Shown here: in pieces, positions 1,768 to 63,611 of the stretch
How the letters are laid out: each line of letters begins with the position of its first letter
Numbering within the stretch: the stretch's first letter is position 1
Assembly (NCBI GenBank): GCA_951406725.2
Contig: OX597819.1
Coordinates: 114,638,001 to 114,702,000, forward strand
Length of the DNA stretch: 64,000 bases
Source: Octopus vulgaris
Taxonomy: Eukaryota
Direction: 5' to 3'
Made by a program: the position numbers and the translations under genes
The notes under the pieces: model-generated
The model's input: the letters and a program-made list of their open reading frames with translations, nothing else
The model's database searches: none
What the model was told of the DNA's origin: nothing

Positions 1768-2691
1768 ATGAATGCAACCTATTTGGCTGATCCTGTTATA
1801 TATTCAAGATTTGTTGCTTTGAATATCATACCTGTATTCCTAATTGTGGGACTCATAGGTAACTTATGTGTGATATATATTTATGCACGACAGTCCCAGA
1901 AAAGCAATGTAGAAACATTCATCCTTGTATTAGCTGTTACTGATCTCACTGGATGTATCCTTGGAATGCCTCTGGAAATGGCTGAACTCTACCTGGCAAT
2001 ACAATCAAAATATTTCTGCAAATTATACAAGTTTGTTATCTTCATGTGTTCTGCCATGTCATCCTTGATTTTGTTTACTATTGCTGTTGAAAGATTCAGA
2101 AAAGTATGTTGTCCACATGGCAAACAAATTACTCCAAAACTACGGCAAACTCTTATTATTTTCATAACTGTAACATCAGTTGCATTGGTATTGCCAGTTC
2201 TGATTTACTTTGAATCTGTTCCCTTTACCTATGAAGATAAGATGTATATGATATGTTGCTGTGACCTTAGAAGGTCACCTGCCTGGTCATACATTCTAGC
2301 AGCATTAATTCTTCACATTATGCTATTCTCAACCATGACTGTACTTTATTCGCTTGTTCAGAAGACTATTACTCAGCATTTCAAGAAAAAGCAAAGTAAA
2401 GAAGCAGCTTGCAAACAAGACCAATTTAGTCGCACAAACATTGTACTTATTTCAATTTCTGTTTTGTTTTTTGTCAGTTTTTCACCAGTTCTTGTTTTTA
2501 TTGTCATACATCCATACTTCAAAGATTCTAACTTGTTGCAGATTTTGAAAGTAGTTTTATACCGTACTTGGATACTAAATTCATCTTTAAATCCCTTTGT
2601 GTATGGATTTTGTAACAAAATATTCCGCAAAAGTTTTGGAAATATATTTACTCAGGATAAAATTGTCTTTGAAATGGAGGAGAAATTTTAA
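1768..2691 (+). CDS. Intronless class A (rhodopsin-like) orphan GPCR, copy 1, 307 aa
   Basis: Seven hydrophobic segments. TM1 GLIGN, TM2 LAVTD, TM3 Cys and ERF (DRY variant), TM6 FVSFSP, TM7 NSSLNPFVY (NPxxY), helix 8 FRKSF, N-terminal sequon NAT. Confidence 0.95.
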   Translation: MNATYLADPVIYSRFVALNIIPVFLIVGLIGNLCVIYIYARQSQKSNVETFILVLAVTDLTGCILGMPLEMAELYLAIQSKYFCKLYKFVIFMCSAMSSLILFTIAVERFRKVCCPHGKQITPKLRQTLIIFITVTSVALVLPVLIYFESVPFTYEDKMYMICCCDLRRSPAWSYILAALILHIMLFSTMTVLYSLVQKTITQHFKKKQSKEAACKQDQFSRTNIVLISISVLFFVSFSPVLVFIVIHPYFKDSNLLQILKVVLYRTWILNSSLNPFVYGFCNKIFRKSFGNIFTQDKIVFEMEEKF

Positions 2692-2816
2692 GATTTGGTT
2701 TACACCACACTTTTTAATATCGAGGAATACTTTCAAGTAGCAGAAACATTTCCTTTGCTTACGATTTCATAGGAAATGCACTAGATTGAAAATAACTCAA
2801 GGATTGAGGTGTTTAA

Positions 2817-2936
2817 CCCTTTAGCGTTCAGATTAATTTGTCAAAAGTAATCCTTATTTATTCACATTAAAAAAAATTTATCTGATATTATTTTGTACCT
2901 TCAAGACCGGATACAGCCGGTTTAAACACTAAAGGG
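2817..2936. mobile_element. piggyBac-type MITE (CCCTTTAG...CTAAAGGG, TTAA TSD)
   Basis: ttaa|ccctttag ... ctaaaggg|ttaa. Paralogous 3' flanks (e.g. about 12697) show the empty ttaa site. Confidence 0.8.
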
Positions 2937-59739: not shown

Positions 59740-60663
59740 ATGAATGCAACACTATTCACTAATCCAGTTATATTTTCAAGAATAGTTGTTTTTAGTATCA
59801 TACCTTTCTTCCTAATTACGGGACTTATAGGTAACATGTTTGTGGCATATATTTACACACGTCAATCTCAGAAAAGCAATGTGGAAACATTCATCCTGTT
59901 ACTAGCAGTCATTGATCTGGTTGGATGTGGCTTTGGACTGCCACTGGAAATGGCTGAACTCTCCCTCGCAATTCATTCAAAATATTTGTGTAAACTGTAC
60001 AAGTTTGTTGTTTTCAGCTGTTGTCTTATGTCATCCCTTATTCTTCTTACAATTGCCATGGAGCGCTTCAGAAAAATATGCCATCCACTTCGCAAACAGC
60101 TTACTCCAAAACTACGCCGGATTCTTATAATTTTTATGGCAGTAACGTCAGTTGTAACATCACTACCAGTTATCTTCTACACTGACACTTTACCATTTTC
60201 CCAGGAATTGAAAGCCTATAAAGTCTGTGGTAGCAGTCTTAGTAATTCGTCTGCTTGGTCATATGCTGTAGCAGCATTGGTTGCTCACAGTATTTTTTTA
60301 CTGACCATGACTGTACTTTATTCTTTTGTCCAGAACACTATTACTCAGCGTTTGAAAAAACATCAAGGTAAAGAAGAAGCTTCAAAACAAGAAGGAATCA
60401 ATCGCACAAACATTGTACTTTTCTCAATCTCTGTTTTGTATTTTGTCAGTTTTTCACCACTCCTTGTCTTCTGCGTCATATATCCGTACTGCAAAGATTC
60501 TAATTTGTTGCAGATTTTGAAAGTAGTTTTTTATCGTACTTGGATACTAAACTCCTCCTTAAATCCCATGGTGTATGGATTCTGCAACAAAATATTCCGG
60601 AAAAGTTTTGTAAATATATTCACTAGGGGTAAGATTGTCTTTGAAATGGAGGAGAAATTTTAG
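59740..60663 (+). CDS. Intronless class A orphan GPCR, copy 8, 307 aa
   Basis: Start assigned to the conserved cttgtttcaccATG-NAT at 59740, not 59695. GN, LAVID, ERF, SFSP and NPMVY present. Confidence 0.95.
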   Translation: MNATLFTNPVIFSRIVVFSIIPFFLITGLIGNMFVAYIYTRQSQKSNVETFILLLAVIDLVGCGFGLPLEMAELSLAIHSKYLCKLYKFVVFSCCLMSSLILLTIAMERFRKICHPLRKQLTPKLRRILIIFMAVTSVVTSLPVIFYTDTLPFSQELKAYKVCGSSLSNSSAWSYAVAALVAHSIFLLTMTVLYSFVQNTITQRLKKHQGKEEASKQEGINRTNIVLFSISVLYFVSFSPLLVFCVIYPYCKDSNLLQILKVVFYRTWILNSSLNPMVYGFCNKIFRKSFVNIFTRGKIVFEMEEKF

Positions 60664-62630
60664 TATTTGGTTTACACCACATTTTCAATAGAGAGGAATA
60701 CTTCCAAGTACCAGAAGCATTCTCTTTGCTGACTGTTTCAAATGAAATACACTATTTTTTTTTTTTTCTGTGAAGTGTTGAAAATAACTGAAAGTTTGAG
60801 ATATTTTAATGAAATAACCAACTTCTTCCATTATTTTTCTGTTTGGACATAATTATATTTTCTTTCATGAAACTGGAATGTTTTAATTTAAATTTGAACA
60901 TTTTAAAAATATGCTGTTTGTATCCTTAACCCAGAGTCACTCTAAGGTAGGTTAGTATTAGAAAGGTCTATTTGAACTCTTGAACAATTTCTCTATTACA
61001 TATTTATTCTAGTTTCTGTTGTTTTATACTTTCTATAGACACATAACTGTTTGTGTAAGTCCTACTTTAAACCAAAAACTGTGTGGATCCTGCAGTTTAT
61101 GAATTAACATATTAAATCTATATGAAAAATTTACTGAAAAGCTAAAAAGAATATATTAAATTTCGTGTTTGCTATCTTATCATCAGCATAAAATTTCTAA
61201 ATTACTTATCAAATTTCTAAATTAGAAAGGAAGTAAAAAAGATGAGTGTCTTGTCATCGTCACCATTGTTATCCTTATTGTCATCATCATCATCATCATC
61301 ATCATCATCATCATCAACGTCATCATTGGCACTTTTATGTCCACTTTTCCTTACTTGCACAAGCTTTATGAGTCCTCCCCAACACAGCATAATGATACAC
61401 TTGGCTTCTCTCTGTGATCTTTGTGATGATCAGTATCCTGAGTTTTGTCTTCACCCCTTCCACAGTTTCTCTCTATGTGGGTCTTCTGGCACTTCTTCTT
61501 TGACAATTGCATTGGTATGGACTAAAATTATTTTTGATTAATCGGACATATTTTTAGGAATTCTGAAACAATGTCAAAACTAATAACAATTTAGATGTCC
61601 CTTTCTATGAAAATGTTTACCATTTTTTGCTGAGCAGAAATTTATTGTTAAACCCTACAATTCTTCGATCTTGTGTTTTAAAAATGAGTGTCTTGTCATC
61701 ATCACCATTGTCATCATCGTCATCGTCATCATCATCATCATCATCATCATCAACAACAACAACAACAACTTCTTCATCATTGACACTTTTATAGCCAAGT
61801 CACTTTTATCCTAATTAAAGAAATAAACCCTTTCAGAGTGGTAATTAACATCATTATTGTCTCACATTTCAACATTTCTCAAACGTCTTTGGTATATGCA
61901 ATGTTATATTATGCTTATTTGTGTGTGAGTCTGTTTTAATGTGTTTGATATAATCCAGTTTCTGGTAAGGATTATAATAATGGTTAATACATGAATTTAT
62001 GTAACCCAGTAGGATGACAAAGTTGACGTTGATATAATTTACATTTAGAACATAAAAAAAAGTACAAGCATTTTACCAAAACTGTTATGATTCCACTAAT
62101 CTATCATAATTAACAGCCTAATTAAGTAAAATGAGAGCGTCGACGTTGCTATTGAAGTTTCCTAATTATGTATTTATTTATGAATTACTGATTTGTTAAG
62201 TTCTTTTTGTATCTAATTAGTAAGACAAAACAGGATATTTATTAATGTGTAACTTTATTTAAACAGAAACCACACAAGCTATTGCATATTACTTTGATAG
62301 CTCTCTCAGGGTGTTTATTTCACATTTTAATTGTATTTGTGTAAGAACTCATCTAAAACAACAGAACAATTTTTGTTCTCCAAGATACATTCTAGGATTA
62401 TGGATGATTTTCAGTCTGCTGTTAATACACTAATCAAGTTATTTGCCTACTAGGACATCTCTGAAATTATTGCATAACTGCGTTATATATATATATATAT
62501 ATATATATACATACATACACACACACATACACACACACACGCACACATACACACACATTGACACTCACTCACACACACACATGCACATTATACTTACTAA
62601 ACTGTAGATAAATTACATACTTGTTTCACC

Positions 62631-63611
62631 ATGAATGCAACACTATTCACTAATCCAGTTATATTTTCAAGAGTAGTTGTTTTTACCATCATACCTTTCT
62701 TCCTAATTACGGGACTTATAGGTAACATGTTTGTGGCATATATTTACACACGTCAATCTCAGAAAAGCAATGTAGAAACATTCATCCTGTTACTAGCAGT
62801 CATTGATCTGGTTGGATGTGGCTTTGGAATGCCAATGGAAATGGCTGAACTCTCCTTTAAAATTCAAACAAAGTATTTGTGTAAACTGTACAAGTTCATT
62901 ATTTTCAACTGTTATATTATGTCATCCTTCATTCAGTTTACAATTGCTGTTGAACTCTTCAAAAGAATATGCCATCCACTTCGAAAACAAATTCTTACAA
63001 TTGCCATGGAGCGCTTCAGAAAAAAATGCCATCCACTTCGCAAACAGCTTACTCCAAAACTACACCAGATTCTTATAATTTTTATGGCAGTAACATCAGT
63101 TGTAGCATCACTACCGGTTATCTTCTACATTGACACCATGCCATTTTCCCAGGAATTGAAAGCCTATAAAGTCTGTGGTAGTAGTCTTAGTGGGTCTTTT
63201 GTTTGGTCATATGCTGTAGCAGCATTGATTGTTCATGGTATTTTTTTACTGACCATGACTGTGCTTTATTCTTTTATCTGGAACACTATTACTAAGCGTT
63301 TGAAGAAAAAACAAGGTAAAGAAGAAGCTTCCAGACAAGATGGAGTCAACTGCACAAACATTGTACTTTTCTCAATCTCTGTTTTGTATTTTGTCAGTTT
63401 TACACCAACCCTTGTCTTCTGTGTCATATACTCACATTACAATGATTCTAACTTATTACAGATATTTAAAGTAGTTTTATATCGTACTTGGATACTAAAC
63501 TCCTCCTTAAATCCCATAGTGTATGGATTCTGTAACAAAATATTCCAGAAAAGTTTTGTAAATATTTTTATTAGTGGTAAAGGTGACTTTGAAATTGTGG
63601 AGAAATTTTAG
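62631..63611 (+). CDS. Intronless class A orphan GPCR, copy 9, 326 aa, with an in-frame 19-aa duplication at TM3/ICL2
   Basis: Intact ORF containing FTIAVELFKRICHPLRKQI followed by LTIAMERFRKKCHPLRKQL. Confidence 0.9.
   Translation: MNATLFTNPVIFSRVVVFTIIPFFLITGLIGNMFVAYIYTRQSQKSNVETFILLLAVIDLVGCGFGMPMEMAELSFKIQTKYLCKLYKFIIFNCYIMSSFIQFTIAVELFKRICHPLRKQILTIAMERFRKKCHPLRKQLTPKLHQILIIFMAVTSVVASLPVIFYIDTMPFSQELKAYKVCGSSLSGSFVWSYAVAALIVHGIFLLTMTVLYSFIWNTITKRLKKKQGKEEASRQDGVNCTNIVLFSISVLYFVSFTPTLVFCVIYSHYNDSNLLQIFKVVLYRTWILNSSLNPIVYGFCNKIFQKSFVNIFISGKGDFEIVEKF

Follow-up and report, generated by a model that had tools for sequence, protein, structure and literature searches.

The window analysed here is a 64-kb stretch of the Octopus vulgaris genome (64,000 nucleotides; GenBank assembly GCA_951406725.2, contig OX597819.1, positions 114,638,001 to 114,702,000 of the forward strand). 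It contains a tandem array of genes for G-protein-coupled receptors (GPCRs) of class A. Copies were mapped between window positions 1768 and 63611 by listing open reading frames (ORFs) and by tblastn. Nine homologous copies, c1 to c9, were found, all on the + strand (tblastn E values of 1e-44 to 0), bearing out the nine same-strand paralogues of an earlier, sequence-only reading of the window (the original prediction). Intact ORFs of 307 amino acids, the predicted size, were present in c1, c3, c6, c7 and c8; c9 departed from this size with 326 amino acids. Frameshifts are present in c2 and c4, and c5 consists of a 5′ fragment. The claim that the genes are intronless held as far as the coding region, which is uninterrupted in each copy. 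The count of nine is uncertain by one or two because the units bearing c3 and c4 are ~99% identical and could be two alleles. In the following list of copies and repeated units, TM denotes transmembrane helices and ICL and ECL the intracellular and extracellular loops.

1768..2691, + strand: c1, intact class A GPCR of 307 amino acids; orthologue of O. sinensis XP_036359573 (91%; tree support 100/99)
10794..31626, + strand: unit of ~8.4 kb in two and a half repeats, bearing c2, c3 and c4; flanks 98.4-99.8% identical
11635..12567, + strand: c2, mosaic with frameshifts; for the most part orthologous to XP_036359574 of O. sinensis and to Ocbimv22011403
20093..21016, + strand: c3, intact, 307 amino acids, NAP in place of the sequon; orthologue of Ocbimv22011401 (tree support 97/93)
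28505..29429, + strand: c4, frameshifted, 99% identical to c3; extra A in a run at ~28837-28842
39445..39810, + strand: c5, 5′ fragment of ~121 codons with a 1-bp deletion; stops shortly before the start of the c6 unit at 39873
39873..48014, + strand: 3.6-kb unit present twice (39873-43466 and 44444-48014, 96%), bearing c6 and c7
41984..42907, + strand: c6, intact, 307 amino acids; with c7, nearest to the 5′ part of Ocbimv22011402 (85/96, open fork)
46541..47464, + strand: c7, intact, 307 amino acids; 96% nucleotide identity to c6
59740..60663, + strand: c8, intact, 307 amino acids from the aligned ATG (a further in-frame ATG at 59695 would lengthen the protein by 15 amino acids); orthologue of Ocbimv22011400 (90%)
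62631..63611, + strand: c9, 326 amino acids, in-frame 57-bp duplication at the TM3/ICL2 end; orthologue of Ocbimv22011399 (100/100)

Receptor class, motifs and predicted fold

The Pfam profile 7tm_1, proposed as a check in the original prediction, matched all six full-length copies scanned (E values of 2e-25 to 6e-34) and 44/44 aligned rows. The copies carry N1.50, D2.50, C3.25, R3.50, P6.50 and NPxxY, with seven helices and helix 8; the exception is c9, whose own TM3 bears Leu at 3.50. The TM3-ECL2 cysteines are kept: C84 in 44/44 rows and C163 in at least 90%. As had been described, the N-terminus is short, with 31 residues ahead of N1.50 and TM1 starting at about residue 9 in the structural model, and ICL3 and the C-tail are short as well. 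W4.50 is replaced by T, I, A or V in 21/21 Octopus members, and S-F-[S/T]-P stands in place of CWxP, again as claimed. Two further motifs applied in part: the NAT sequon occurs in 7/9 copies, c3 and c4 having NAP, and ERF occupies positions 3.49-3.51 in place of DRY except in c9's own TM3, which reads ELF.

Among 149 distant relatives, many of which are bivalve and gastropod orphans with long loops, S[F/Y]xP was present in 114, any TM4 Trp in 15 and R7.40 in 123; ERF occurred in 8, with DRY, ERY or DRF in most. Because such changes are common among these relatives, they are mostly inherited and do not single out olfactory receptors. ERF, the missing W4.50 and SFxP were rejected as olfactory traits; the losses of W4.50 and CWxP go back to a wide molluscan orphan clade. 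What is particular to the array is the short N-terminus together with the short ICL3. Class A genes with one coding exon are likewise common in octopus: of 39 non-expanded O. bimaculoides genes of this class that were sampled, 14 span no more than 1.25 kb.

The fold was taken from an AlphaFold model (pLDDT 85.5), which predicts seven helices, helix 8 and a β-hairpin in ECL2 (strands 149-155 and 158-164). Foldseek ranked CCK1R first, with opioid, NPY, endothelin and neurotensin (NTSR1) receptors among the matches listed. VIA-align placed orexin receptors first (Z 30.8; 297 residues at a root-mean-square deviation of 3.6), and the Z scores of many class A rows were within 3 of the top match. NPFFR2 and NPY1R were the best solved-sequence matches among the 60 listed of 270, and a protein atlas look-up returned generic class A clusters. 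No odorant receptor occurred among those 60 sequence matches or among the ~50 rows listed for each fold search, lists that may not extend to every matching family. Judged by the matches listed, the modelled fold appears closer to peptide receptors than to smell receptors.

Vertebrate odorant receptors are ~310 amino acids long, have a single coding exon and lie in tandem clusters, as in the array. The architecture had indeed been called olfactory-receptor-like, and this part of the original prediction was not supported: the odorant-receptor profile 7tm_4 matched 0/21 Octopus members at E 0.01, ECL2 forms a β-hairpin in the model, peptide receptors ranked first and the motif losses are clade-wide. 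The accompanying statement that vertebrate odorant-receptor motifs are absent was correct for the alignment; the array does not consist of vertebrate odorant receptors. The profile 7TM_GPCR_Srw, typical of Aplysia and nematode chemoreceptors, likewise matched 0/21 Octopus members. Weak Srsx matches were present in 19/21; adrenergic and galanin receptors carry them too. It is quite improbable that the copies are convergent odorant receptors for small hydrophobic molecules, expressed one per cell in the olfactory organ. Small size, a single coding exon, the tandem array and the variable TM3-TM6 pocket described below would suit such a role, but the profile and loop results, the clade-wide motif changes, a charged and invariant core and a small repertoire (7-9 genes here, 12 clade rows in O. 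bimaculoides) argue against it.

Origin of the array

Relatives were drawn from a search of 1.84 billion representative sequences. The nearest proteins were from O. sinensis (91%), followed by O. bimaculoides. For the latter species, group listing and expression came from Ritschard et al. 2019 (PMC6408891, table S2). All 12 O. bimaculoides relatives looked up belong to class A 'group 1' of that table, and seven of the 12 form a same-strand tandem on Scaffold18646 (Ocbimv22011399-22011405). The scaffold is named in the discussion of that article, which describes tandem duplication followed by dispersal and takes group 1 to be neuropeptide-receptor-like and divergent in expression (PMC6408891). 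The parts of the article that were consulted contain no pocket analysis and no proposal of chemosensation for the cluster. Thus, the locus and its expansion are already published (Ritschard et al. 2019), the receptors remain orphan, and the array alone would not surprise a specialist.

The Scaffold18646 cluster represents the same locus: c8 and c9 correspond to Ocbimv22011400 and Ocbimv22011399, c3 and c4 to Ocbimv22011401, c6 and c7 to Ocbimv22011402, and c2 to Ocbimv22011403. Relative to this cluster, the O. vulgaris array has extra recent duplications (c3/c4 and c6/c7), and the 11401 and 11402 types are in swapped order; O. bimaculoides has two additional genes upstream. The 28-row tree that gave the supports listed above paired c9 with Ocbimv22011399, c3 with Ocbimv22011401 and c1 with XP_036359573, and grouped c6 and c7 with Ocbimv22011402 in an open fork. 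Five or more of the paralogue lineages are matched by intact genes in O. bimaculoides or O. sinensis. The Ocbimv22011402m protein (P0013, A0A0L8HM69) is a 324-residue model over 8.5 kb that looks like a fusion of two neighbouring paralogues, with a c6/c7-like front and an XP_052824920-like end; its published expression values would therefore be mixed.

In a 55-row tree, the Octopus clade containing the array (support 99) was nested within a short-loop group of 23 rows (94); this group includes the brain-biased Ocbimv22030501 and adjoins long-loop orphans of bivalves and gastropods. The clade fell away from the galanin-like, alpha-2, D1 and TAAR rows, the tree containing just eight reference rows; a QRFPR-like row sat on a long branch, its place wrong or unsure. 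These data agree with the lineage-specific expansion of the original prediction, now defined as an Octopus-level clade orthologous to the group 1 cluster. One-to-one orthology with a conserved neuropeptide or amine receptor was found for none of the few in the tree (eight rows). The distant group 1 member Ocbimv22030501 (P0031) lies on a record of 117 Mb, as do the O. bimaculoides cluster genes. For the pair P0003/P0005, the records are different and larger in both species; it is a dispersed copy that predates their split.

The sister assemblage in the 55-row tree comprises molluscan orphans (Mytilus, Crassostrea, Saccostrea, Haliotis, Pomacea and Tegillarca) automatically named CCK-A-, orexin-2-, NPS- or NPY6-like. 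They have in common with the array [D/E]R[Y/F], the absence of W4.50, S[F/Y]xP, R7.40 and the C3.25-ECL2 cysteine, at 24-36% identity. Unlike the array, they mostly have a long ICL3 (median Y5.58-P6.50 span of 135 vs 46 residues) and a longer N-terminus. The clade was not identifiable in the available part of a jingle-shell paper (PMC11682238). Automatic names (NPFF, NPY, neuromedin U, melatonin, angiotensin) were rejected as ligand evidence, as the names disagree.

Pocket divergence, expression and candidate roles

Whole-gene dN/dS was 0.36-0.70 in 15/15 copy pairs, so the copies are under constraint. By region, dN/dS was 0.16 in TM2 and 0.21 in TM7, and dN was highest in ECL2. Pocket positions were defined using generic pocket numbers, and entropy was calculated over 21 Octopus members. 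The TM3-TM6 pocket had an entropy of 1.48 vs 0.91 for non-pocket outer-half positions of the same helices (21 vs 34 positions, p=0.003); on the TM1/2/7 side, the values were 0.22 vs 0.55. E2.61, E2.64, Y3.28, K7.35, R7.40 and W7.42 were invariant in 21/21 members, and E2.61 and R7.40 were each kept in 16/23 outgroup rows. Highly variable sites were 3.37, 4.57, 4.60, 5.42, 5.46, 6.51, 6.55 and ECL2. Codon counts, based on c1, c3, c6 and c8 only, gave pN 0.329 and pS 0.304 for the pocket (pN/pS ~1.1) vs pN 0.136 and pS 0.357 for the control (0.38; permutation p=0.003, four sequences).

Divergence was also uneven along the gene. At fourfold sites, c1, c3 and c6 differed at 4/98 in codons 1-95 vs 24/113 in codons 96-250. 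The c1 protein differed from its O. sinensis orthologue at 21/95 residues in codons 1-95 vs 8/212 in the rest, and the c8 orthologue pair had no 5′ skew (9/95 vs 23/212). The near-absence of silent divergence in codons 1-95 of c1, c3 and c6, together with the skew of c1 against its orthologue, indicates putative gene conversion of the 5′ ends.

Expression was evaluated as bulk tissue proportions for 12 O. bimaculoides clade members (table S2, PMC6408891), the sampled tissues lacking the olfactory organ. Values were present for 12/12. The mean sucker plus skin share was 0.33 in the clade members vs 0.10 in 39 non-expanded class A genes (p=0.002), and sucker or skin was the top tissue in 5/12 vs 3/39 (p=0.012). 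The share was 0.53 for the c8 orthologue, Ocbimv22011400 (top tissues skin and sucker), and 0.57 for the c9 orthologue, Ocbimv22011399 (top tissue skin). A strong sucker bias also marked two group 1 genes outside the close matches, Ocbimv22013367m (0.59) and Ocbimv22026028m (0.58); the lean to sucker may thus extend beyond the array. The c9 lineage (P0016, P0027) is without R3.50 (ELF) in O. bimaculoides too, yet has an open frame and skin-biased expression, and may encode an atypical receptor or one that does not signal. Contigs of run X1, whose RNA origin is a guess, were 85-91% like the coding sequence of c3; they could be paralogue transcripts or DNA and were not counted as expression.

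Based on the peptide-receptor scaffold, the fixed charged core, the fast-changing pocket side and the partial skin/sucker bias, we tentatively interpret the array as an Octopus-level group 1 expansion whose members are candidate low-abundance peripheral sensors, some of them in skin or sucker, for related, probably peptide-like ligands. A chemosensor role of the candidate receptors in skin or sucker is plausible. The candidate chemosensory cluster of the original prediction thus stays alive through pocket diversification and the sucker/skin lean, while its olfactory-like features fail to discriminate. Mechanistically, unequal crossing-over would multiply the copies, and gene conversion would keep their 5′ ends and flanks similar even as the TM3-TM6 pocket diversifies. 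The ligands would have one end in common, docking on the charged TM2/TM7 core, and would differ in another part, recognised by TM3-TM6 and ECL2, so that each paralogue would be tuned to a different ligand. Signalling would proceed via the retained R3.50, Y5.58, NPxxY and helix 8. Such a two-sided pocket predicts ligands with a common end and a variable part, and the array provides a short, testable list of candidates, with the c8 and c9 orthologues leaning to skin and sucker.

Lineage-specific class A expansions have been proposed as chemoreceptors in Lophotrochozoa, with 11 such genes in O. bimaculoides, 23 in O. sinensis and 51 in O. vulgaris (Nath et al. 2025, PMC11886862). Like the array, these sets are tandem, taxon-restricted paralogues with a variable (high-entropy) extracellular pocket; the available supplements gave counts, and no accessions matching the cluster were found in them (PMC11886862). 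Mammalian MRGPRs offer an analogy, being small class A receptors without CWxP, DRY and PIF that expanded in a lineage-specific manner and act in sensory neurons (PMC13661610). MRGPRs were not among the best sequence and fold matches listed, and the likeness is one of analogy only. Formyl-peptide receptors and TAARs are further analogues. By analogy, the logic of the array would be closer to that of MRGPRs or formyl-peptide receptors than to that of odorant receptors. A more specific proposal, which we consider unlikely as a whole, is G-protein-coupled peptide-tasting in octopus skin and sucker epithelium beside the ion-channel chemotactile receptors. A neuropeptide-type orphan would have been co-opted and multiplied, with conversion of the 5′ half and a TM3-TM6 pocket diversifying for prey, egg, mucus or conspecific peptides, convergently with MRGPRs and formyl-peptide receptors. 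Literature searches returned no deorphanised cephalopod chemosensory GPCR. Six clade gene ids were searched for and none was found in the main texts covered, most subscription papers being outside that coverage. The 2015 octopus genome paper reportedly lists Aplysia-like and vertebrate-like candidate chemoreceptors.

Several observations weigh against a peripheral sensory role. For seven of the 12 clade members, the top tissue is neither sucker nor skin (it is axial nerve cord in three, and viscera, embryo, ova and suboesophageal brain in the others); the c2 orthologue is expressed in viscera and salivary gland, and the c3 orthologue in nerve cord, brain and testis, with sucker and skin at 0. 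The expression check suggested in the original prediction was thus divided in O. bimaculoides bulk tissue, all members being expressed and part of them leaning to sucker or skin. Moreover, the values are proportions only, probably from few reads, and weak expression drifts to a flat share of 2/12. Nor do the paralogues count as independent, and the control set of 39 was drawn from two of the seven file parts of the O. bimaculoides sheet. In C. minor, group 1 is gill-biased, in rows not tied to this clade (PMC6408891). With respect to the pocket, its positions are generic numbers, a pN/pS close to 1 is as compatible with relaxed selection as with diversifying selection, and both the two-sided split and the TM4 anchor (137 to 134) were fixed after the first entropy table. 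Ritschard et al. 2019 report no positively selected sites (PMC6408891). A peptide-receptor fold indicates ancestry and says nothing on ligand class. Finally, the sets of Nath et al. 2025 are reported without the TM3-ECL2 disulfide, whereas the array family keeps these cysteines (PMC11886862).

Many of the same data bear on the published interpretation, in which the copies are receptors for endogenous neuropeptides or paracrine peptides with tissue domains split among nerve cord, brain, viscera, salivary gland, gonad and skin. We consider this nearly as likely as peripheral sensing. Group 1 falls among sequences of molluscs that carry neuropeptide-receptor annotations, and its expression is divergent (PMC6408891); the nearest named outside relative, Ocbimv22030501, is brain-biased, and the conservation of E2.61 and R7.40 in the outgroup and the peptide-receptor-like predicted fold point in the same direction. 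However, receptors for a conserved endogenous ligand usually keep their pocket, and here the TM3-TM6 pocket is the fastest-changing part of the membrane domain; nor do the discordant automatic names of the orthologues indicate a ligand family.

Immune or barrier surveillance is improbable; the receptors would sit on haemocytes and epithelia and detect peptides or metabolites of microbes, as formyl-peptide receptors do. Pocket diversification is consistent with it, as is the spread of expression across skin, sucker, viscera, ova and salivary gland, which circulating cells or exposed epithelia would give; the gill bias of the C. minor rows noted above would also fit. Nevertheless, nerve cord or brain is the top tissue of several members, and no haemocyte signal was present in the available data for six E. 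scolopes group 1/2 rows (one without data), which may not belong to this clade.

A very improbable alternative is that the copies are mostly redundant products of an unstable, repeat-rich locus, drifting without new function. The near-identical recent units, the one fragment, dN/dS values of up to 0.7 and the orthologue without R3.50 are consistent with drift. This is countered by the paralogue lineages, at least five, that are intact in O. bimaculoides or O. sinensis, by the low dN/dS of TM2 and TM7, and by the expression of all 12 O. bimaculoides members.

Broken copies, assembly and repeats

The mix of intact and broken copies in the original prediction held in part: five copies are intact and c5 is broken, but c2 and c4 are not secure pseudogenes. 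The c2 copy has nine inserted letters and zero deletions, and all nine insertions fall in stretches that match c3 mismatch-free (12037-12128 and 12352-12502); the O. sinensis XP_036359574 state is present at 53/82 diagnostic sites. Sequencing contigs were compared using eight pieces listed per run. Contigs of runs X5 and X6 (two related organisms from one study; relatives, not shown to be the source individual) span 12112-12519 with seven gaps, sited exactly at the seven inserted letters of c2 in that span. Their alignment ends at 12112, close to the end of the first c3-type stretch. Run X7 had no piece over c2 among the pieces listed. The breaks in c2 are likely a consensus artefact, because insertion-only damage where paralogue versions meet would suit merged consensus calls; true gene conversion is a possible alternative for the mosaic. 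Between c2 and c3, flank identity is 98.5-98.7% and coding identity only 87.7%, the opposite of the usual pattern. This contrast may reflect either homogenisation of the flanks by unequal exchange or a mis-assembled repeat.

The frameshift in c4 is a single extra A within a six-A run, possibly a homopolymer error, and c4 itself is either a recent duplicate or a second allele. Based on these patterns of inserted letters, c2 and c4 were rejected as secure pseudogenes. As their breaks are likely assembly artefacts, the evidence for birth and death is weaker than first claimed; more generally, artefactual frameshifts in near-identical tandem paralogues can mimic birth-and-death evolution.

The c5 fragment is likely a true pseudogene, the sole secure-looking one in the array, because it ends before the next unit and repeat-derived sequence separates it from a displaced upstream block. 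This 0.8-kb block (35025-35838) is 86-87% identical to the regions upstream of c6 and c7 with no gene behind it, and is probably the displaced upstream region of c5. In c9, the protein's own TM3 end reads ELF and is followed by a c8-like ERF copy, the 57-bp duplication; the O. bimaculoides orthologue reads ELF and is without the duplication, which may be the result of an unequal crossover or an artefact.

Retroelement remnants lie between c4 and c5 (31847-32227 and 36785-37171), where Pfam gave an integrase zinc finger (E 5e-10) and, below the cut-off, a weak match to a reverse-transcriptase fragment (E 2e-4). An (AT)145 tract occupies 38690-38980. Short, very high-copy repeats at 16660-16810 and 18468-18720 recur in later units and were by far the most deeply covered by contigs in each of the four runs, the putative RNA run among them; they are probably short interspersed elements. 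Finally, an inverted pair of ~165 bp, 92% identical (13905-14070 and 15061-15218), occurs again in the next unit (22338-22495 and 23475-23632), possibly as the ends of a DNA transposon.

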